Shown here: positions 853 through 64,000 of the stretch, one piece after another
Numbering within the stretch: position 1 is the stretch's first letter
Layout of the letters: the number at the start of each line of letters is the position of its first letter
DNA from: Anaerolineales bacterium
GTDB taxonomy: Bacteria > Chloroflexota > Anaerolineae > Anaerolineales > UBA11858
Direction of reading: 5' to 3'
Length of the DNA stretch: 64,000 bases
NCBI GenBank assembly: GCA_016783125.1
Contig: JADHXE010000001.1
Span: 124 to 64,123 of the forward strand
The notes under the pieces: model-generated
Told to the model about the DNA's origin: nothing
What the model saw: only the letters and a program-made list of their open reading frames with translations
The model's database searches: none
Translations under genes and position numbers: made by a program

Positions 853-2334
853 CGAGCCAACCCCCTTCGATCATCACGGTACGGAGATGTTCTTCCGCAT
901 CTCGCACCCGGGATAGTGCAGATTTGAAATCAGAGATGGCTTCATCCAACGGGGGGATATCTTCGCCGATGGGCGGCAAGACGTACCTGGAAATATTGAG
1001 GTTCCAGTCTTCCTCCTGGATTTCATCCAGCCCGACGACGCGCGCCCGATCTTTGACATCTGCGAAGGTCTGCACCCAACCCAGGATTTCGGCAGCATGC
1101 TCGAGATCGAGAAAGTTTTGGGCGCGTCCTTTTCGAAATAGCTCAGATGCGTCCACGATCAGCACTTTCTCTTTCCGTTCTAGCGCTTTGCGCCGCCGTA
1201 GAATTAAGATGCAGCCAGCCCCGTGCCATAAAACAAATTATGGGCCAGGCCGATTACGGTCTCGATGAAATCGTGCTCCAGTAAATATTTGCGGATATTG
1301 CCTTCCACGCCCCCACGGAAGAGAGCGCCCTGCGGCAGCACAACCGCCATGCGTCCGCTGCCAAAGGCCATCGAAGAGACCATGTGCTGCACCCAGGCAA
1401 AGTCACCGCTTCTGTCGGTAGGCAATCCAGCGAAAGCCCGTCCCCAGGGGTCGCTCTCCCAAATCTCACGGCCCCACTGTTTTAGCGAGAAGGGCGGATT
1501 GGCGATCACATAATCGAAGGTGGCTAATCCTCCGGTGGCAGGATCGGTGAATATCGGGCTACGGAGCGTATCGCCGCGCTCGATGGAAAAGTCTTCGATG
1601 CCGTGAAGGAGCAAGTTCATGCGCGCCACGGAGGCCGCGGTCAGGTTCCTTTCTTGGCCAAACAATTTCCCGAAAAAGGTACGCGGATCACCGCATGTAT
1701 CTTGCACATGCTGGACGGCGCCCAGCAGCATCCCACCGGTGCCGCAGGCCGGATCATAGATGGTTTCCCCTTCCTTGGGATCAAGGATCTCGACCATCAA
1801 GCGCACCACACTGCGCGGCGTATAGAACTCGCCAGCTTTTTTATTGGTGGCGTCGGCGAACTGTTTGATCAGGTACTCGTAGGCATCGCCGATGATATCG
1901 CTCTTGACCTGATTGTTACCCAATTTCAAGGCCGAGAAATGCTCGATCAAGTCTTTGAGCAGCGCATCCGGCAAACGGTCTTTATTGGTCCATTGGGCAT
2001 CGCCGAAGACCCCATACAGATGCCGCTGGTTGGCAGTTTCGATTCCACGCAAGGCGTTCTGTAACGCGGTGCCGACGTTGACGGGAGTCTCGCGCACGTC
2101 GCACCAATGATTGCCTTTTGGGATTTAGAAACGATGCTCATCAGCAAAATCCTCGCCATAAGTCTCCACCATCTCTTGATATTCTTCATCCCAGACATCA
2201 CAGATGCGTTTGAAGAATAGTAGCGGCAGGATGTAGCTCTTCCAGTCGGTACGGTCCACTGGACTGCCGCGCAGGATGTTGGCGGCTTCCCAGAGATGGG
2301 ATTCGAGGGTGGAAATGTCGAGGGTGGTGGTCAA
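845..2334 (-). pseudogene. hsdM: HsdM-like type I methyltransferase disrupted by an in-frame TAA and a frameshift
   Basis: Three collinear ORFs (2334-2125, 2097-1204, 1165-845) together spell one HsdM: 'LWEAANILRGSPVDRTDWKSYILPLLFFKRICDVWDEE', 'DPACGTGGML', 'IANPPFSLKQW', 'EEDWNLNISRYV'. Positions 2125-2127 are an in-frame TAA (..EHRF*IPKGNHWCDV..; the paralog has ERFIIPTGAHWGD). The frame slips by 1 nt near 1204-1216 (FYGTGLAAS* versus ..CILILRRRKALERKEKVLIVDASE). Confidence 0.85.
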
Positions 2335-2410
2335 TATTGGTTTTCCCTGGTCTTCGTTTTGGATGGAGAAGGATGGTTGGTAGGGAGGCTTGAGGGTAAT
2401 TGCCAGAGTA

Positions 2411-2489
2411 CAGAAAAACCGCTCATACCCGCAGGGTACACCCGAAACATCCTGGTAAGGAGTGCGGGGGCTTCCTCTAGTATGAGCGG
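2411..2489 (-). terminator. Branched stem-loop followed by a U-run on the minus strand (terminator-like)
   Basis: The outer stem is CCGCTCATAC (2419-2428) / GTATGAGCGG (2480-2489). The inner stem is CCCGCA/TGCGGG, with two small hairpins inside. On the minus strand it is followed by TTTTTCT (2412-2418). Confidence 0.35.
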
Positions 2490-2753
2490 CACCGTTGTGT
2501 TATTATCTCGTTGCCACGCACCCACCTGCGTGTGCCATCGCCGGGAGTGTTACGTTACTGCCCGGCTTTTGAATTTATATACCCACTAATCTTAGCATAT
2601 CCACTATCACTATGCAACCGGAGCACAAACTGATGGGGTCAGAAAAAGTGCCGCGCCATTCTCTGACTGTCGGAGAAATTCTTACACCGGCATATCTGCG
2701 TCACATACATAACCCCTACCCCTCACATTCACAATCCACTTCTCACTTTGCCT

Positions 2754-3831
2754 TCATCTTTTCCCATAACAAGTGTCAAAATTCCCTCCGGGTTCCCAAA
2801 AGGTCCAATTCCCCACTACTTCAAATTTTTCATTCACCAGCTCTACATCATCAATCAAAATTCGCACTTGCCATGTTCCTGAGTGCAATCCATCAGGTTC
2901 AGATATTGTCACTTGAGTTTCCGTGCCACTGCTAGCCCCTGTCCAAATACAAGTGTATCGGGCCCATTCCCTCCCCTCCATACTCCATATTCTTTCGTAC
3001 TTGGCTCCATAAGGGATATTTTCATAATCCCATCGCACATCGATTACTTTTATGGCCTCGGCAAATTCTCTAGTCGCATTCGACCCATTGCATGAGCCAG
3101 GACAAGCAGAAAAATTATCTATTCTAACGGTTATTGGCGTCAGAGTTGCAGAGGGAATGGCAGTAAAGGTAGCAATTGGTTCAGTTGCGGGAATGCTTGT
3201 TTCAATGGGGGTAATTACTTGCTCTGCGGGTGTGGAAGTAATAACAACAATTTGCGTTTGAATCTGTGGACGGAGATTTATCCCGTTTTTTGTCCACCAA
3301 TTCCGTAACAAATGCATCAATCGTTTCTTTCCCCCCTTGTTCGATCCTGGTAGCTAACATTCTCAGGGCATCAACAAGTTCTTGTGATGTATGAAAGCGA
3401 TCGGCGCGGTCTTTGGCCAAACCTTTATCGATGATTTTTTGTGTTGTGGCTGGCAAATCGGCGCGTTTCTCCGCAATATGGGGAATCGGATCTTGAATAT
3501 GTGCAACAACCATTCCTACAGGCGTATCTGCTTTATAGGGTTGTTCCCCCGTAAGCATTTCAAATAGAATAACAACCAAAGAATAAATATCACTCCGCCC
3601 ATCGAGATCCTTCTCTGTACGTGCTTGTTCTAGGCTCATATATGCAGGCGTGCCGATCGTATCAGCTGTGCCAGTGAGGGTAGTATCTGCATGAGTTAGC
3701 TTCACAATACCAAAATCCGACAAATAGGGATTACCATCTTCATCAAAAAGAATATTCGCTGGTTTGATGTCACGATGGATTATTCCCTCTGTATGCGCTT
3801 TGTCCAATGCCGGTGCCAAGCGAGCCAGCAT
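2754..3831 (-). pseudogene. Ser/Thr protein kinase remnant (N-lobe missing, frameshifted C-terminal region)
   Basis: ORF 3831-3202 begins inside the kinase at 'ALDKAHTEGIIHRDIKPANILF..DFGIVKL..GTPAYMSLEQ'. No GxGxxG/VAIK lobe is present, and only ~110 nt separate it from the preceding gene. The C-terminal part continues in another frame (3320-2754), with the shift near the A6/G6 runs at ~3290-3336. Confidence 0.75.
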
Positions 3832-9655: not shown

Positions 9656-11929
<2,274 letters not shown>

Positions 11930-57775: not shown

Positions 57776-58903
57776 CTATGCCTCCATAAATTCCATTCTA
57801 CGTGGTGTGACCTGCCAGTTCTGAGGGATATCCCCTCGAATACACAGGTCACCATCCAGTGTTTCGATTTCTATATTGCCCAGACGCAGCGCCTGTACCA
57901 GTTTTTCCACACCAGGCCCTCCGATTGGAGTCGGAGCATCCTGCCCACCGATGATCAACGGGGCAACGAAAGCCCAAACCCGATCCACCAGACCCCCAGC
58001 AAAGAATGCGCCAAGCAGTTCACTTCCGCCCTCGACCAGCAGGGTGAGCAGACCATGCCGACCAAGCTCATTTAATAGTGCTGGCAAGCTGACCCGATGG
58101 TGAGTATCCGCGGGTAGCATCCATACATCCACACCACTCGCCTTGAGTTTTGCGCAATGTGCTGGGTCGACAGCCGCGGTAGTTGCCAATACGGTCTTGC
58201 CTGGCAAAGATGGTTCGAACAATTGTGCTGATCGTGGTACACGCCCGCGGCTGTCTGCCACAATGCGCAAAGGATGGTGCACATCAGGCCGATCGAGGCG
58301 GGTGGTTAATTGGGGGTCATCTGCCAGCACTGTTCCAGTGCCCACTAAAATAGCATCGACGACATCTCGTAATTCATGAACGCGCCGCCGCGAGGTTTCA
58401 TTGGTGAGCCAGAGTGATTCTCCGCTGCGGGTAGCGATCTTGCCATCCAGGCTCATGGCAAATTTAGCGGTGACAAATGGTCTTCTTTGCGTGATATATT
58501 TGTAGAAAGGCAAATTGAGCTTTCGCGCTGCCTCCTCCAAAAGCCCCCCATGGACACCAATCCCAGCGGCCTCCAGTTGTGTATGTCCTTTGCCATTCAC
58601 GAGCGGGTTGGGGTCGCCGACTGCGTAATGCACTTTGCATACTCCAGCCCCGATAAGAGCCTGAGTACAAGGTGGTGTGCGCCCATGATGTGCACAGGGT
58701 TCCAGGTTGACGTAAAGGGTTGCACCATGGGCTGCTTCGCCAGCTGCGCGCAAGGCTTCGATTTCAGCGTGGGGTGCGCCAGCCTGATGATGAAAACCTT
58801 CCCCCACGATGCGACCATCTTTTACGAGCACAGCGCCAACCATTGGATTTGGACTGGTGCGGCCTTCTGCCCTGCGAGCCAATTCCAAAGCGCGCTGCAT
58901 CAT
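57776..58903 (-). CDS. ribD: Bifunctional diaminohydroxyphosphoribosylaminopyrimidine deaminase / 5-amino-6-(5-phosphoribosylamino)uracil reductase
   Basis: The start 'MMQRALELA' is at 58903. 'HAEIEAL' and 'PCAHHGRTPPC' form the deaminase zinc site, followed by a reductase domain. The longer track ORF reads through the riboswitch. Confidence 0.95.
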   Translation of the reverse strand: MMQRALELARRAEGRTSPNPMVGAVLVKDGRIVGEGFHHQAGAPHAEIEALRAAGEAAHGATLYVNLEPCAHHGRTPPCTQALIGAGVCKVHYAVGDPNPLVNGKGHTQLEAAGIGVHGGLLEEAARKLNLPFYKYITQRRPFVTAKFAMSLDGKIATRSGESLWLTNETSRRRVHELRDVVDAILVGTGTVLADDPQLTTRLDRPDVHHPLRIVADSRGRVPRSAQLFEPSLPGKTVLATTAAVDPAHCAKLKASGVDVWMLPADTHHRVSLPALLNELGRHGLLTLLVEGGSELLGAFFAGGLVDRVWAFVAPLIIGGQDAPTPIGGPGVEKLVQALRLGNIEIETLDGDLCIRGDIPQNWQVTPRRMEFMEA

Positions 58904-58924
58904 GGTTTCATGAATGTCATTCAA

Positions 58925-59232
58925 ATAAAAAACTCCCAAAAGGTAAGCAAATAACCTTCGGGGAGCACAACAAGCCATAGAACAGATTATCACACTGATA
59001 ACCTGCCTGACAACAATACGCCCCGAAGAGTTGGTACTCTTCGGGGTACATGGCAGACAACCACCCTGCATGGGTAGTTGGAAAACCTTCTTCCATCCGG
59101 ACTGTACCGTCGGCCCCGGAGTTCCACCGGATCTGCTCATCACTAGAGATGGCGACTTGCTCGCGGGCTTTCACCGCCGGTAGGGAATTGTCTTATACAT
59201 TATACAAGACTCACCCTGCCCCGAAGGTTATC
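58925..59232 (-). promoter_or_regulatory. FMN riboswitch (RFN element) with terminator expression platform
   Basis: The minus strand reads CCUUCGGGGCAGGGUGA...AAUUCCCUACCGGCGGUGAAAGCCCGCGAGC...GAGCAGAUCCGGUGGAACUCCGGGGCCGACGGUACAGUCCGGAUGGAAGAAGG (about 59085-59230). A terminator follows: CTCCCCGAAGGT..ACCTTTTGGGAG plus TTTTTTATTT (58925-58968). Confidence 0.92.
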
Positions 59233-59338
59233 TATATAATTTTCGGTATTTTATCATATTCTTCGCCTCAGTGGCATCTGGTTTTCAACCACCACGGCAA
59301 ATCTCAAATGGGTGTGTTTCAAACGAGTTGAGAAGTTC

Positions 59339-59390
59339 CGGAAATTGGGGTGTGCGGGAGGCGTTCTCCCCCCGCACACCCCAATTTCCG
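59339..59390. repeat. GGGGTGTGCG-type palindromic hairpin
   Basis: The 20-bp perfect stem is CGGAAATTGGGGTGTGCGGG / CCCGCACACCCCAATTTCCG, with a 12-nt loop. Confidence 0.6.
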
Positions 59391-59516
59391 ATCTCTCTAT
59401 AACCGATAATAAACACATCCATCTCAAATAGCCTTTCTGCCGGGAAGGAAAATCATTGATAAAATAGGATGTAACGCTTTCTACATCATTTCGTCTTATA
59501 TATAGCAGGAACAGCA

Positions 59517-60080
59517 ATGCCAACTGGTGACCCAGCAGCTTCAGATGCCGAATTGATCGCACGTGCCGTTTGAGGCGATGCCGACGCGTTCGGTGATCTA
59601 TATGAACACTATCTGGATCAGATTTATCGGTACGTCTACTATAGCGTTGCTAACTCACTTGAGGCAGAGGACCTGACCGAGACAGTATTCCTCAAGGCCT
59701 GGGAGTCGCTGCCTGGGATGCGAACCAAAGTCAAAAGGTTAAACTTCCGGGCCTGGTTATATCGGATAGCCCACAATTTGGTGGTGGATCGCTATCGCAT
59801 GCACAAGCCAACCGTGTCCCTCGATCAAACCAACACATTGAGAGATCCTTCGCCAACGCCGGAAACCATTTTACAAGCCAAAGAAGAAGGACAGCGGTTG
59901 GCCTCAGCCATCAAGAAACTAGAGCCCCATTTGCAGCAGGTGCTGGTTTGCCGGTTTATCAACGGGTTGAGCCACGCGGAAACGGCCCAGATCATAGGGA
60001 TTTCCGAAGGATATGTGCGGGTTTTGCAGCACCGCGCCCTGAAGAAAATGGGCGCGGTGCTATCAGAGGAATTGAGCTGA
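59517..60080 (+). pseudogene. ECF-type sigma-70 factor interrupted by an in-frame TGA
   Basis: MPTGDPAASDAELIARAV-TGA(59571-59573)-GDADAFGDLYEHYLDQIYRYVYYSVANSLEAEDLTETVFLKAWESLPGMRTKV..; region 2 is 'FRAWLYRIAHNLVVDRYR' and region 4 is 'LSHAETAQIIGISEGYVRVLQHRALKKM'. ATG 59517 and the track ORF (59718) are in the same frame. Confidence 0.8.
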
Positions 60081-60081
60081 G

Positions 60082-61068
60082 ATGACAAAGACACATTCAG
60101 ATCTCCTGGCAACCTGTTTGGAAGCGATAGAACGGGGTGATATGACCTTGGAAGAAGCCCTGAAACGTTATCCCAAACAACGGGCGGAACTGGAGCCCCT
60201 GCTGAAAGCAGCTATTGATATGCAAAAGGCGCCGTCGGTATCCCCCCGCCCAGCCTTCCGCCGTGCAGCCCGGGTACGCTTGCTCAATCGTCTCTCTCCT
60301 CGCCAACCTGTAACGTTTTGGCCTCGATTTCGTCTTATATGGCAGACCACAAAACCAAACATATACAGGAGGTTTGCCATGACATGGATATTGATTTTGA
60401 CTGTACTAGCAACTTTGGTGGGCGGTGGGGGCGTGGCCTATGCATCAGGAGACGCCCTTCCGGGGGATGTGCTCTATCCGGTCAAGACCGGCATCGAAGA
60501 TGTGCGCCTGACGATCGCGGATAATGCCGGAGATGTGGGACTTTATGCCCAATTTGCCCAGGCGCGCGTGGAGGAAATCCAGGCGTTGGTGGCGGAGGGA
60601 AGGTATGCTGATATTCCACTCGCTGCACAGCGTTTCGAGAATCAAGTGGCGGAAGCAGCCCGTGCGCTGGCCAGCGCGGCCGCGGAGGACACCGCCCGTG
60701 CTGAAGCCCTGGCCGCCCTTTTGGGTGAGGCCCTGTCTGTTCATACACAGGTTTTGACTTCCCTGCTTGGCCAAGTGCCAGAACAAGCTAAACCTGCCAT
60801 CGAACATGCTGAGAACGTTTCAAGTATGGGGCAGACGGTGATCGAGCAGTTGATGCAGGGCGAGATCCCGTTTGGACCGCCCGATGAAGCTGGGCCGCCT
60901 GACGATGCCGGGCCGCCTGATGATGCCGGGCCTCCTGATGATGCTGGGCCGCCTGACGATGCCGGGCCCCCTGAAGGCGTTGGACCTCCTACGCTCACAC
61001 CCATAATCGCTAACCAGCCTGGGGGACCGCCTGCTGGGACACCTGGTGGAAGCGGTGGAAGGCCTTAA
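60082..61068 (+). CDS. Anti-sigma factor-like membrane protein (DUF5667-like ectodomain) with Gly/Pro/Asp repeat tail
   Basis: It starts 1 nt after the sigma stop. It has one TM segment, 'WILILTVLATLVGGGGVAY'. 'GDVLYPVKTGIEDVRL' is typical of DUF5667. A GPPDDA repeat forms the C-terminus. Confidence 0.7.
   Translation: MTKTHSDLLATCLEAIERGDMTLEEALKRYPKQRAELEPLLKAAIDMQKAPSVSPRPAFRRAARVRLLNRLSPRQPVTFWPRFRLIWQTTKPNIYRRFAMTWILILTVLATLVGGGGVAYASGDALPGDVLYPVKTGIEDVRLTIADNAGDVGLYAQFAQARVEEIQALVAEGRYADIPLAAQRFENQVAEAARALASAAAEDTARAEALAALLGEALSVHTQVLTSLLGQVPEQAKPAIEHAENVSSMGQTVIEQLMQGEIPFGPPDEAGPPDDAGPPDDAGPPDDAGPPDDAGPPEGVGPPTLTPIIANQPGGPPAGTPGGSGGRP
60874..60990 (+). repeat. 18-bp coding tandem repeat (about 6.5 units) encoding GPPD(D/E)A
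   Basis: GGnCCnCCnGAnGAnGCn units start at 60874, 60892, 60910, 60928, 60946 and 60964, with a partial unit at 60982. Confidence 0.9.
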
Positions 61069-61118
61069 TTCCTAGATGTCAAGAGTCTCAAAATATCTGA
61101 ACGAGAGATAAAACACAG

Positions 61119-61170
61119 AAGTTCCCCCCACGGTTTTCTAAAAGCCCAGAGGGGAACTTATCTTTTCTCA
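61119..61170 (+). terminator. Terminator-like hairpin downstream of the anti-sigma gene
   Basis: The stem is AAGTTCCCC / GGGGAACTT with a 23-nt loop, followed by ATCTTTTCTC. Confidence 0.45.
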
Positions 61171-61476
61171 GTGGTCATCCCATCTGCTTTAGAAACCTTG
61201 TCTTACAACAATTTTTACGTTGATTGTTCTAACATTCAACGTTCTAACAACTTGGATTCAACTCGCTAATTGCAACGGAACGCTCAAAGAATATCTTAAA
61301 GTGATTTGGAATCAAGGTATTTTCTTGGACGATGATTGAGTTTGTTCATGATCAGAATCAATTCTTCGTCTGAAACTGTATCAAGGTGTCGGTTCCTGGG
61401 AATGTATTGGCTGAAATATCAAACGGACTTTAGTTGCCCATCCAACAGGTAGTTTGAGCTTTTGAGATGAAAGATT

Positions 61477-61512
61477 AAATGCATTCCACATTTTCAGGCG
61501 TGGAATGCATTT
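61477..61512. terminator. 13-bp stem hairpin immediately downstream of cysE
   Basis: AAATGCATTCCAC-attttcaggc-GTGGAATGCATTT, starting 4 nt after the cysE stop. Confidence 0.5.
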
Positions 61513-61515
61513 AGC

Positions 61516-62280
61516 TTATATCGAAAAGTCTTCAACCTGCCAGGTACCGTTTTTCGAAATCTGGGTGACGGATTTGGCAGTTTTATATCCGCCAATTTGG
61601 TCTTCAAGCGTTTCAACCCGCTCAACCAATTGTTTCAGTGTTCCGCCAATGACATCAGGGAGTTTGGAGTGATTAAGATCGGGTATTGATCGCAATTGAG
61701 GGGATTTGCTGCGCGCGATGTTTTGTCCCGGCACACCCACAACTACCGAATTTACTGGCACTGATTTCACCACTACGGCATTAGTCCCGATACGAGTGTC
61801 ACCCCCAATAGTAATGGCACCCAAAACTTTTGCACCTGCACCAATCACAACTCGATCTCCAATCGTTGGGTGGCGCTTCTTCTTAACATTACTTGTTCCA
61901 CCCAATGTGACCCCGTGGTACAGGGTCACATCTTCCCCAATTTCAGAAGTCTCGCCGATGACCACCCCCATACCATGGTCAATGAATAGACCAGGACCGA
62001 GGGTAGCACCGGGATGGATTTCGATGCCAGTCAGGCTTCGGACGATTTGGGAAATCCACCGGCCTAACAGCTTGAGGTTGTGGATCCAAAACCAATGCGC
62101 CAATCTATGGCCCCACACTGCATGAAGGCCGGGATAACAGAGCAACACTTCAAGGATGCTGCGCACCGCCGGGTCTCGCTCAAAGGTGGACGCAATATCC
62201 CGGCGGATTGTGAGAAAAGCAGCAGCCACTGACTGGATCGGACAGATTCGTAATCTCTGGTGTAAGTTTTTAAGAGTCAT
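61516..62280 (-). CDS. cysE: Serine O-acetyltransferase
   Basis: 'ERDPAVRS', '[12 protein letters not shown]', '[11 protein letters not shown]' and '[15 protein letters not shown]' are present, with hexapeptide repeats. The C-terminus ends in ..DFSI; a C-terminal Ile is the CysK-docking residue in characterised CysE proteins. Confidence 0.9.
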
Positions 62281-62294
62281 TTTGAACGCCTAAG

Positions 62295-63227
62295 TTATTC
62301 GGCTAAATCCTGAAAGAGCGGGGTGCTCAGATATCGCTCACCAAATGAAGGAATGATGACGACGATCAATTTCCCGGCGTTTTCAGGGCGGCACGCCACC
62401 TGAAGGGCAGCCCAGGTCGCGGCTCCAGACGAGATGCCGACCAATAGCCCCTCCTGGACTGCCATATCTCGAGCGGTCTGCATAGCGTCCTCATCTTTGA
62501 CACGGATCACTTCGTCAAAGACCTGAGTATTGAGTACCCCGGGGACAAACCCCGCCCCGATTCCCTGAATACCGTGGGGACCTTTCTGCCCACCAGACAG
62601 GACTGGCGACCCATCTGGTTCGACAGCGACTACTTTGAAGGTTGGTTTGCGGGCTTTTAGTACCTCGCCAACCCCGGTTATCGTTCCCCCAGTACCAATT
62701 CCGGCCACCAAAATATCAGCCTGCCCGTCCGTATCCCGCCAGATCTCTTCAGCCGTGGTTCGGCGGTGAATTTCAGGATTGGCCGGATTCTGAAATTGTT
62801 GTGGAATGAAGTAACGCGAGTCAGTAGCGACCAATTCCTCAGCTGTGCTGATGGCACCTTCCATACCTTCACTACCAGGAGTGAGAATTAATTCAGCCCC
62901 ATAGGCACGCAACAGCATCCGGCGTTCCTGGCTCATCGTATCAGGCATAACCAACGCGCAGCGATACCCACGAGCCGCGCAAACCATGGCCAACGCGATC
63001 CCGGTATTGCCGCTGGTGGGTTCAAGGACGATAGTATCGGGTTGGATTAGCCTGGCTTTTTCGGCTGCATCGATCATGGCAACGCCGATGCGGTCCTTTA
63101 CGCTGTGAGCCGGATTGTAAAACTCAAGCTTCACAACAATTTTAGATTCAGTACCCTTACTAATCCGCTTTAGCCGGACAAGAGGGGTGTTTCCAACAAG
63201 TTCAGTGATATTGCTAGCGATATTCAT
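62295..63227 (-). CDS. cysK: Cysteine synthase A (O-acetylserine sulfhydrylase)
   Basis: '[11 protein letters not shown]' (PLP lysine), '[10 protein letters not shown]' and '[10 protein letters not shown]'. Confidence 0.95.
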
Positions 63228-63263
63228 TTCAGTATTTCCTTTAAATCAATACGACCAACTGAC

Positions 63264-63331
63264 AAAAAAAAGACGGCTTTCGAGCGCCATGCATATCAAG
63301 CTTGCATGCGGGGTCGTCTACCGTCTTTCAG
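63264..63331 (-). terminator. Intrinsic terminator inside the cysK leader (attenuator regions 3:4)
   Basis: On the minus strand, CUGAAAGACGG (63331-63321) ... CCGUCUUUUUUUU (63276-63264). It is enclosed by the outer stem ACGACCAACTG / CAGTTGGTCGT (63251-63343). The cysK Shine-Dalgarno sequence follows directly. Confidence 0.6.
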
Positions 63332-63365
63332 CCAGTTGGTCGTTTATATTTCTGAAGAGGCGGTA

Positions 63366-63431
63366 TTACGATCCCCGCCTCAGACACAGGCAAAATAACA
63401 TATATCGTTCTCCAGGTAAGTGAAATTTCAT
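63366..63431 (-). CDS. Candidate Cys-codon leader peptide of the cysK-cysE attenuator
   Basis: ATG 63401, preceded by GGAGA with a 7-nt spacer, gives MLFCLCLRRGS*. An in-frame ATG at 63431 lies only ~8 nt after the -10 box (possibly leaderless) and gives MKFHLPGERYMLFCLCLRRGS*. The stop UAA (63366-63368) sits in the loop of hairpin GAGGCGG/CCGCCUC. Confidence 0.45.
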   Translation of the reverse strand: MKFHLPGERYMLFCLCLRRGS

Positions 63432-63438
63432 AGCTTAT

Positions 63439-63466
63439 ATTGTATGGGGACTGAGGTTCTTGTCAA
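63439..63466 (-). promoter_or_regulatory. Sigma-70-type promoter of the cysK-cysE leader
   Basis: On the minus strand, TTGACA (63466-63461), a 16-nt spacer, then TACAAT (63444-63439). Confidence 0.55.
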
Positions 63467-63505
63467 GGGTTAGCCGGCACCGGCCAGGGCAATCGCATCA
63501 TATGT

Positions 63506-64000
63506 TCAGACAACTGAGGATAGTCCGGAGAGGATATCAAGCAAATAATCATCATTCCACCCAGCGATTAGGCGTTTGCCACGGATACTGCGTTTGCAAG
63601 AAGTCTCCATCCTGAGTAAGTTCAAAGCAATATGGCGCAGGATGGCGAAGTTCTCAGGGCCATGGTCTTTGCGAACTCTGCTACGGTCTTCGTCAAAAGA
63701 AATATCAAGCACCCAGTGTAGTCTGTTTTCAATGCCCCAGTGAGAGCGCACAGATTGCAGTATCCGTTTAGCGCCACAAATACTGGCAATATGGTAGCGG
63801 TATTCGGTGCTTTTCTTTTCGCCAATGATGCGCTGGGAGCGGATACGGGAAACCGTACGCAATTTCTTCCAATTGTCAAAGCCGCGTAAGTAGCGCAATA
63901 TTTCCGGATCGGAGATTGTCCAACATTCGCAGATTTCAATCCGACCGTGACCTTTATCCACGGTCTTCGTGTAATCATATTGTATAAGCAGAGTAGTTGC
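63506..64000 (-). mobile_element. ISAs1-family (IS4-like DDE) transposase, C-terminal part; gene continues past the right window edge
   Basis: 'KGHGRIEICECW' and 'RSHWGIENRLHWVLDISFDEDRSRVRKDHGPENFAILRHIALNLL' are present. The frame stays open upstream of the track start to nt 64000 (..ATTLLIQYDYTKTVDKGHG..). Confidence 0.85.

Follow-up and report, generated by a model that had tools for sequence, protein, structure and literature searches.

A putative cysteine-responsive transcription attenuator upstream of cysK-cysE in Anaerolineae

How could a member of the Anaerolineales couple the expression of its cysteine biosynthesis genes to the supply of cysteine? The question is raised by a locus on contig JADHXE010000001.1 (assembly GCA_016783125.1), of which we analyzed the 64,000 nucleotides from position 124 to 64,123, in the following called the window. 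On the minus strand, at window positions 63228-63466 and directly upstream of the genes cysK-cysE, lies a leader which a first-pass annotation had described as a trp-style attenuator with cysteine codons. We conclude that this leader is very probably a cysteine-responsive, ribosome-mediated transcription attenuator of cysK-cysE. Sequence and comparison reveal a conserved open reading frame (ORF), a conserved spacing between codons and structures, covarying and mutually exclusive helices, terminators and a link to cysteine genes. Four hallmarks of trp-type attenuation were found, namely a leader ORF with cognate codons, an intrinsic terminator, a covarying exclusive antiterminator and the appropriate placement of the codons and the stop. 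The leader is a new, cysteine-specific family of a known kind, namely ribosome-mediated transcription attenuation, and not a new mechanism.

The 5' part of the leader carries the following elements:
63439-63466, minus strand: sigma-70-type promoter with TTGACA (63466-63461), a 16-nt spacer and TACAAT (63444-63439), scoring 11/12 in a consensus scan
63429-63431, minus strand: distal in-frame ATG, 7-8 nt past the -10 box, which would give the 21-residue peptide MKFHLPGERYMLFCLCLRRGS
63409-63413, minus strand: Shine-Dalgarno (SD) sequence GGAGA, 7 nt upstream of the proximal ATG, read from the sequence
63366-63401, minus strand: leader short ORF MLFCLCLRRGS with ATG at 63401 and UAA at 63368-63366; start, frame and stop are conserved
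63390-63392 and 63384-63386, minus strand: putative regulatory cysteine codons UGC (63392-63390) and UGU (63386-63384), read from the sequence

The promoter, the SD sequence with its ATG, the short ORF with UGC and UGU two codons apart and the additional ATG at 63431 are all present as the first-pass annotation had described them. Within 61000-64000 the consensus scan returned just two promoter-like sites, one of which is the leader promoter. A promoter scoring at least 9/12 is found at the equivalent place in 29 of 30 homologous leaders, mostly also with a 16-nt spacer.

The closest relatives of the CysK protein in a collection of species-representative genomes come from Anaerolineae and other Chloroflexota and are at most 82% identical. 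We read 330 nt upstream of 80 cysK loci from this collection, and a pattern search yielded 31 clear leaders. The same order recurs upstream of cysK: an SD sequence, an ATG, a few codons, TGC-NNN-TGT, 5 nt, GCGGGG, a stop codon, CCGCC and a long hairpin with a T-run. This layout was found in about 30 Anaerolineae (Chloroflexota) genomes. Within the 330 nt a short ORF with the motif C-x(0-2)-C occurs at 32 of 37 Chloroflexota loci versus 5 of 43 loci from other phyla. A metagenome scan with a 23-base pattern over Cys-x-Cys, GGCGGGG, CCGCC and CCCGC gave at least 120 stretches; among the matches listed, at least 89 have an ATG-initiated short ORF of 9-27 codons, and several matches devoid of a short ORF are chance matches in G+C-rich DNA. 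The window itself contains two further matches to a relaxed regular expression (Cys-x-Cys/GCGG/CCGC), at 11388(+) and 29245(+). Neither contains GGCGGGG, and both appear to be chance matches. For the leader chance is excluded, as its layout is conserved in more than 100 independent loci.

The first-pass annotation had made its proposal depend on the conservation of the cysteine-containing short ORF in relatives, and the comparison came out positive. The frame of the cysteine codons has an upstream in-frame ATG with no stop codon in between in 30 of the 31 Anaerolineae leaders, versus 1/31 and 3/31 for the other two frames. Most homologues carry GGAG, GAGG or AGGA upstream of the proximal ATG. 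The distance from the second cysteine codon to GCGG is 5 nt in 30/31 leaders. The stop codon follows the first cysteine codon after a median of 8 codons (31 leaders) and lies 3-9 nt ahead of the core of region 2, the distal arm of the first hairpin (see below), in 26/31; the remaining five ORFs read through region 2. In two variant leaders from Roseilinea and Thermoflexales (L002, about 2779, and L017, about 2794) the ORF ends with C-L-C-S-stop directly before the GCGGG arm. Since the ORF finishes there, the stop is located upstream of region 1, the proximal arm, and not in the loop.

An in-frame ATG 7-10 nt after the -10 box is present in 9 of the 29 leaders with a good promoter, the window included, and in five of these nine it is the sole in-frame ATG. 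The chance of such an ATG is about 4% per sequence, which is a rough estimate and not a computed control. Leaders with an ATG near the -10 box are, for example, L003, L014, L036, L045, L066 and the window (63429-63431). Given the nine leaders, leaderless translation is plausible for part of the family, and the sequences suggest that the short ORF is translated in this way there.

Could the peptide itself be the product? A functional micropeptide, such as a metal- or redox-active CxC peptide which is expressed along with the cysteine genes and does not act as a sensor, would account for the conservation of C-x-C-x-[RG]-R-G at the amino acid level in about 120 loci. The pattern M-x(n)-C-x-C-x-[RGW]-R-G-x-stop is indeed shared by the 31 genome leaders and at least 89 metagenome leaders. 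However, only Cys-x-Cys is invariant in the peptide, the x codons vary freely, and the N-terminal part ranges from 1 to more than 20 residues. The residues RRG derive from the GGCGGGG arm. In leader L032 the frame shifts after UGU and RRG is lost, GGCGGGG being kept nonetheless, which argues for a constraint on the RNA and not on the peptide. Moreover, the C-terminus overlaps a covarying RNA strand, the position of the stop codon follows the structure, and a peptide of 11 residues of which two are fixed is unlikely to be a folded product. Variants with additional cysteine codons also occur (MCCCSC... in L006 and ...CTCLCSCA-stop in L026). We consider a functional micropeptide extremely unlikely.

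If the ORF is the sensor of an attenuator, the RNA has to offer alternative structures. Folding of the 209-nt leader is more favorable than that of shuffled sequences (z = -5.2; 0/200 shuffles are equally good). The structural elements are:
63357-63381, minus strand: hairpin 1:2, GAGGCGG (63381-63375) with CCGCCUC (63363-63357), stop codon in the loop, -14.0 kcal/mol
63352-63378, minus strand: antiterminator 5' strand GCGGGGAUCGUAAUACCGCCUCUUCAG, comprising region 1, the stop-codon loop, region 2 and another 7 nt
63308-63331, minus strand: antiterminator 3' strand CUGAAAGACGGUAGACGACCCCGC, comprising region 3 and the C-box CCCCGC (63313-63308)
63264-63327, minus strand: inner intrinsic terminator with the stem GACGGU...GCCGUC (region 3:4), an inner hairpin CGCAUGCA/UGCAUGGCG and eight U (63271-63264)
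63243-63343, minus strand: outer helix A:A', ACGACCAACUGGC (63343-63331) with GUCAGUUGGUCGU (63263-63251), followed by the U-rich tail UAUUGAUUU

Hairpin 1:2 is as described in the first-pass annotation, with the stop codon of the ORF in its loop, 2 nt before region 2. Its core GGCGG/CCGCC is kept in nearly all leaders, and its flanks covary weakly but significantly (z = -3.7, p = 3e-4, n = 83). The alternative pairing had been described as region 2 plus flank, CCGCCUCUUCAG, with region 3, CUGAAAGACGG (63331-63321). This pairing is present and covaries, but it is far longer than had been read. It continues through the loop of hairpin 1:2 and region 1 to the C-box, so that 63378-63352 and 63331-63308 form a composite helix of 22 bp (-32.5 kcal/mol) which consumes the 5' arm of the terminator.

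The covarying stems which the first-pass annotation had called for were found in the two strands of this antiterminator. As a measure of covariation we used a permutation test in which the duplex energies of strands from the same locus (cognate) are compared with those of strands from different loci (non-cognate). Region 2 pairs with its own terminator 5' half with a mean of -15.5 kcal/mol versus -12.5 kcal/mol for the non-cognate combinations (p < 5e-5, RNAduplex). For the whole strands of 83 non-redundant leaders the values are -34.9 and -30.0 kcal/mol (z = -14.2, p < 5e-5), and with the conserved ends removed z is still -12.9. Compensatory changes can be read directly from the duplex output:
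Leader L037: region 2 side CCGCCAGAG, region 3 side UUCUGGCGG
Leader L024: region 2 side CCGCCGUCC, region 3 side GGACGGUGG
Leader L057: region 2 side GUCCG...GCUUU, region 3 side AAAGC...CGGAC

The C-box is present in 30/31 genome leaders. Its C residues are unpaired in the terminator fold and are complementary to GCGGGG of region 1. The 5' flank of the C-box covaries with the nucleotides 3' of GCGGGG (p <= 5e-5, also without the conserved cores), as seen in the following flank pairings:
Leader L004: GCGGGGUUCG/CGAAUCCCGC
Leader L014: a run of 12 bp
Leader L036: GCGGGA.UGAU/AUCAUCCCGC
As the pairing between region 1 and the C-box nests around the 2:3 pairing, both form one single long helix.

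The intrinsic terminator 3:4 of the first-pass annotation is likewise present with its eight U, but it turned out to be only the middle level of a nested hairpin of about 90 nt. Region 4 is CCGUC (63276-63272), the U-run ends 37 nt before the ATG of cysK at 63227, and the small hairpin CGCAUGCA/UGCAUGGCG sits inside the 44-nt "loop" of the terminator. A constrained fold of the inner terminator gives -18.6 kcal/mol with the tail UUUUUUUU, and the same structure is part of the minimum free energy (MFE) fold of the full leader. Including the outer helix, which was also detected as an inverted repeat, the hairpin reaches -43.0 kcal/mol. A G+C-rich hairpin with a U-run occurs in 31/31 genome leaders, most of them with two nested levels each having its own U-run. 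Among 102 leaders, 96 have at least one U-run hairpin enclosing the C-box and 58 have two nested ones; in several homologues only the outer helix carries a U-run. Terminators were called from folds constrained to end at the U-run. Unconstrained folding downstream of region 2 was dropped as it produced spurious long-range pairs with the coding region. We also considered whether the long hairpin is the inverted repeat of a mobile element (a miniature inverted-repeat transposable element, MITE, or a repetitive extragenic palindrome, REP). This reading is ruled out: a search of the window for the 23-nt arm with up to 3 mismatches gave a single occurrence, and the helix covaries at the same place upstream of cysK in the homologues.

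Two competing conformers could equally be chosen by a ligand, for example cysteine, O-acetylserine or sulfide, or by a protein, in which case the short ORF would be incidental. The conservation of GGCGGGG, CCGCC, CCCCGC and the third positions of UGC/UGU at the RNA level fits a riboswitch or a protein-binding RNA, as does the observation that both conformers exist and compete in the absence of a ribosome. Nevertheless the start, frame and stop of the ORF are conserved (30/31 versus 1/31 and 3/31 in the other frames), the nucleotides of the x codons and the length of the N-terminal part vary freely, an SD sequence or a leaderless ATG is always present, and variants gain further cysteine codons. 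No ligand pocket is evident, because the two helices explain every conserved block except the unpaired C residues of the C-box. There is also no match of the leader to a riboswitch in Rfam. Scans against Rfam 15 (E <= 10; with 9 kb and then with 281 nt) detected no family at threshold on the leader. The best leader match was DUF2815 RNA with 20.9 bits versus a gathering score of 41.2 (E = 0.11 with 281 nt), mostly over the SD region, and nothing else on the leader had E < 5. T-box, S-adenosylmethionine (SAM) and known leader families are ruled out, as none matches the leader at E <= 10, which bears out the first-pass annotation in which no T-box or SAM riboswitch signature had been recognized. 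We therefore regard a riboswitch or protein-binding RNA as most improbable.

How would a ribosome then select between the conformers? We imposed a ribosome footprint from -12 to +15 of the P-site on the folds and obtained for the transcript as it stands prior to the synthesis of region 4:
Ribosome with UGC in its A site: the MFE fold is the antiterminator, -36.0 kcal/mol
Ribosome with UGU in its A site: the MFE fold is the antiterminator without its top six pairs, -23.2 kcal/mol
Stop codon in the A site: the entire 5' strand is masked and the terminator side folds alone
No ribosome: antiterminator is the MFE fold, -42.3 kcal/mol

With the ribosome at UGU the antiterminator is short of six pairs because the ribosome covers GGCGGG. 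For the completed leader the terminator conformer is the MFE fold, with -48.1 kcal/mol up to the U-run and -69.8 kcal/mol overall. The constrained folds thus agree with the first-pass proposal that a stalled ribosome would free the antiterminator strand and that a ribosome at the stop codon would mask it.

From the elements described above we infer translation of the ORF, ribosome stalling, the timing of folding and the regulatory outcome, and we suggest that attenuation proceeds in the following steps. Transcription would start at the strong promoter and a ribosome would translate the 11-codon leader; the 21-codon form starting at the distal ATG is possibly used additionally or instead. The antiterminator 5' strand would begin 5 nt past the second cysteine codon and extend over the final sense codons, the stop codon and region 2. 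Under a shortage of Cys-tRNA(Cys), UGC or UGU would remain in the A site of a stalled ribosome, which would then sit immediately upstream of this strand. Stalled at UGU it would cover GGCGG, and hairpin 1:2 would be melted. In the course of transcription the free 5' strand could then pair with the emerging segment from region 3 to the C-box. Region 3 would thereby be denied to region 4, no terminator hairpin would form at the eight U, and the polymerase would enter cysK-cysE. When Cys-tRNA is plentiful, the ribosome would proceed as far as the stop codon, midway along the 5' strand, and would occlude this strand. After release of the ribosome the local hairpin 1:2 would re-form, region 3 would pair with region 4, the outer arms A:A' would extend the helix, and transcription would halt at the U-tract.

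The targets of this proposed control are the genes directly downstream:
63237-63240, minus strand: SD sequence AGGA of cysK (63240-63237), read from the sequence
62295-63227, minus strand: cysK (O-acetylserine sulfhydrylase), first gene after the leader; TIGR01139 with 464.1 bits versus a cut-off of 350.95, Pfam PALP
61516-62280, minus strand: cysE (serine O-acetyltransferase), second gene of the operon; TIGR01172 with 244.3 bits versus a cut-off of 210.65

Both genes exceed the curated NCBIfam cut-offs, and their earlier assignment as cysK and cysE holds. Directly 3' of the cysE stop codon there is a hairpin with a 15-bp stem (TAAATGCATTCCACG..., window 61476-61513, minus strand), which is probably the terminator of the cysK-cysE operon; its tail is just moderately T-rich. 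At the other end, a DDE transposase ORF fragment (Pfam DDE_Tnp_1, C-terminal part only; window 63506-63961, minus strand, reaching the window end) stops some 40 nt before the -35 box of the leader promoter. The promoter context CCCTTGACA is the same in several homologues, for example L001, L008, L010, L038 and L052, and thus the transposase insertion seemingly left the promoter unaltered.

The control point could also lie outside the U-run hairpin, if a stalled ribosome unmasks the ribosome binding site (RBS) of cysK or blocks Rho. Such translational or Rho-dependent attenuation has precedents: the polycysteine short ORFs of mycobacteria act through unmasking of the RBS (bioRxiv 10.1101/834739), and cysteine leaders of Actinobacteria have no terminators (PMC1262725). 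Furthermore, the outer helix in the window is followed by a poor U-tail. On the other hand, the predicted structures show no pairing between the SD sequence of cysK and the leader helices, a G+C-rich hairpin is immediately followed by a U-run in 96/102 leaders (with eight U in the window), and the competition by the covarying alternative helix is directed specifically at the 5' arm of this very hairpin. In our view translational or Rho-dependent attenuation is very unlikely.

Several points weigh against transcription attenuation as we propose it. The entire case is computational, and the function is deduced from sequence, conservation and folding. The covariation case rests on the energy test with cognate and non-cognate strands and not on counts of compensatory changes pair by pair; MAFFT and RNAalifold applied to 83 A6-linked strand pairs recovered just six conserved end pairs, because the bulges sit on different strands in different lineages. 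There are only two cysteine codons, and these are not adjacent, whereas most characterized attenuators carry more than two regulatory codons. The first is always UGC and the second always UGU (31/31 genome leaders), although the search pattern permitted either. Codon bias is ruled out as the cause, since the long ORFs of the window use 47% TGC and 53% TGT. The fixed order together with this nearly equal usage points to an additional constraint at the level of the nucleotides or of decoding.

The structures raise difficulties as well. Across the family hairpin 1:2 has a mean of -14.9 kcal/mol and the antiterminator a mean of -35.7 kcal/mol. In 81/83 truncated leaders the antiterminator is, without a ribosome, the MFE fold before region 4 is made. 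According to these predictions the antiterminator has about twice the stability of the hairpin. The classical role of hairpin 1:2 as an anti-antiterminator may therefore be weak, and an untranslated leader may read through, unlike the trp leader of E. coli, for which termination is the default. A ribosome stalled at the first cysteine codon is moreover too far upstream to reach hairpin 1:2, and the conservation of this hairpin is therefore incompletely explained. Finally, the outer helix A:A' and the second U-run escape sequestration because A lies in the apical loop of the antiterminator. In the homologues, read-through would still have to get past the second terminator. A possible explanation is kinetic: lacking an inner helix from which to zip, the outer arms could associate only by nucleating a long-range pseudoknot, in the short time for which the polymerase dwells at the U-run.

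These difficulties could be turned into a different scheme, namely an attenuator with an inverted default and two-step kinetic proofreading, in which the order of UGC and UGU tunes two dwell times. Read-through would be the outcome for a leader that is translated slowly or not at all, and termination would need a ribosome on or passing the stop region. The argument for an inverted default is the stability of the antiterminator, which exceeds that of hairpin 1:2 by about 20 kcal/mol, together with the single-stranded toehold of the antiterminator. The U-run of the outer helix would be a delayed checkpoint, about 20 nt later, which samples again whether the ribosome has cleared the cysteine codons. 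We put this scheme forward tentatively and think it unlikely.

Is the leader restricted to cysK-cysE? Extra copies were found in front of other genes. In L012 the leader precedes a CBS-domain enzyme of the pyridoxal phosphate type which is followed by cysK-cysE, in L016, L045 and L066 a membrane protein and a thioredoxin-like protein which are then followed by cysK-cysE, and in L024 a CysM-like enzyme followed by a JAMM protein. Among the metagenome matches listed, the first downstream ORF is a close CysK relative at least 41 times and a distant CysK relative (CysM-like or CBS-type) at least 29 times; inspection by eye added at least 12 rhodanese-type sulfurtransferases, at least one NirA-like sulfite/nitrite reductase and at least one instance of the same membrane protein. 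The link to cysteine and sulfur genes is thus borne out by CysK, CysM-like, CBS-type, rhodanese-like and sulfite-reductase-like proteins downstream of the leader. The operon in which the membrane protein and the thioredoxin-like (CxxC) protein stand between the cysteine leader and cysK-cysE is conserved in L016, L045, L066 (about 2000-3000) and L158. The small membrane protein of this operon has no NCBIfam match. We regard both proteins as candidates for new components of cysteine or sulfur metabolism in Anaerolineae.

Elsewhere in the window, and apart from the leader, we observed a flavin mononucleotide (FMN) riboswitch (RF00050; 59081-59232, minus strand; 102.4 bits versus a gathering score of 66.2), which immediately precedes a ribD-like deaminase/reductase ORF (57776-59143, minus strand). 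Between this riboswitch and a divergent sigma-factor gene lies a near-perfect inverted repeat of about 24 bp (59334-59393), which gives weak, chance-level matches to microRNA models on both strands; a U-run was not noted. The ORF of the extracytoplasmic function (ECF) sigma factor (59718-60080) is followed by an anti-sigma-like ORF (60082-61068, plus strand) with five tandem GPPDDA repeats near the C-terminus.

Chloroflexota, and among them the Anaerolineae, are abundant in wastewater, sediments and soils, and to our knowledge almost no gene regulation has been studied experimentally in this phylum. As far as we know, records of leader-peptide attenuation come almost exclusively from Proteobacteria, Actinobacteria and a few Firmicutes. 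The leader adds a well-supported attenuator family, unrelated in sequence, from Chloroflexota (Anaerolineae), and it appears to join operons for CysK/CysE, CysM-like, CBS-type, rhodanese-like and sulfite-reductase-like proteins into a cysteine regulon. It provides a rule to annotate a hitherto unannotated short ORF and a regulatory RNA in hundreds of metagenome-assembled genomes as well as a seed for a new Rfam family, and it predicts membership in cysteine metabolism for unassigned genes such as the pair of membrane protein and thioredoxin-like protein. The long antiterminator and the nested double terminator could serve as a natural test case for models of co-transcriptional folding.

How does the leader compare with known systems? 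The trp-type attenuators of Proteobacteria (trp, his, leu, thr, phe, ilv) are represented in Rfam by Trp_leader and related families. Like these, the leader has a translated ORF (as predicted here) with cognate codons, a hairpin 1:2, an exclusive pairing 2:3 and then a U-run terminator 3:4 before a biosynthetic operon, and the stop codon is placed such that a terminating ribosome would mask the antiterminator strand. Unlike these, it concerns cysteine and Chloroflexota, it has two codons in a C-x-C arrangement which lie upstream of region 1 and not within it, its 22-bp composite antiterminator also takes up region 1 and the loop of hairpin 1:2, and its terminator is nested in a longer helix, often with a second U-run. 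There is no similarity in sequence or by covariance model to the trp-type families. In Firmicutes, cysK and cysE are controlled by Cys T-box and S-box (SAM) leaders, which sense uncharged tRNA or SAM and have no ORF. The target genes and the choice between antiterminator and terminator are the same, but here a translated ORF is predicted to be the sensor.

We found no earlier description from Chloroflexi or Anaerolineae in the literature covered, which left out most subscription journals. Chloroflexi were covered by a survey of RNA regulons (PMC3766115) in which the attenuator models were limited to those for His, Leu, Thr and Trp and which suggested that the amino-acid attenuator motifs originate in Gammaproteobacteria. 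A related proposal concerns uORFC-8-2 in Rhodobacterales (Brewer et al. 2021, PMC8632094), a predicted attenuator of cysS which has an upstream ORF with two cysteine codons and an intrinsic terminator and is proposed to sense the charging of Cys-tRNA(Cys). Both share the conserved ORF, the two conserved cysteine codons and the intrinsic terminator. According to the published description, however, uORFC-8-2 occurs only before cysS and in Alphaproteobacteria, whereas the leader described here precedes biosynthetic and sulfur genes; the cysteine codons of uORFC-8-2 are adjacent (about positions 14-15), mostly UGC and inside the first stem, whereas here they lie 5 nt upstream of the first stem with one codon in between; and its two stems contrast with the nested architecture of three levels.

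Candidate cysteine leader peptides with cysteine codons close to their stop codon have been reported upstream of cys and cbs operons in Actinobacteria (Seliverstov et al. 2005, PMC1262725). The authors detected neither a terminator nor alternative hairpins there and suggested Rho dependence. The cysteine-containing short ORF in front of cysteine-synthesis operons is common to both, but here the RNA elements are all present and covary.

The mycobacterial "Cys ribulon" (Canestrari et al. 2020, bioRxiv 10.1101/834739) consists of polycysteine leaderless short ORFs upstream of cysteine operons. The first-pass annotation had mentioned such ORFs as cysteine-responsive attenuators; this is indeed published, with the specification that they act translationally, as the stalled ribosome opens a duplex which hides the downstream RBS and an intrinsic terminator is not involved. 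The likeness lies in cysteine short ORFs before several operons, in a regulon that would be sensed by the ribosome and in the apparently leaderless start of some members. The mycobacterial ORFs have runs of consecutive cysteine codons, in contrast to C-x-C, an SD-led start and a possible additional leaderless start here, and in place of RBS unmasking we find a terminator/antiterminator switch, with the SD sequence of cysK not sequestered in the predicted folds. We therefore suggest that the Anaerolineae leaders define a cysteine regulon which is analogous to the mycobacterial one but would act via transcription termination.

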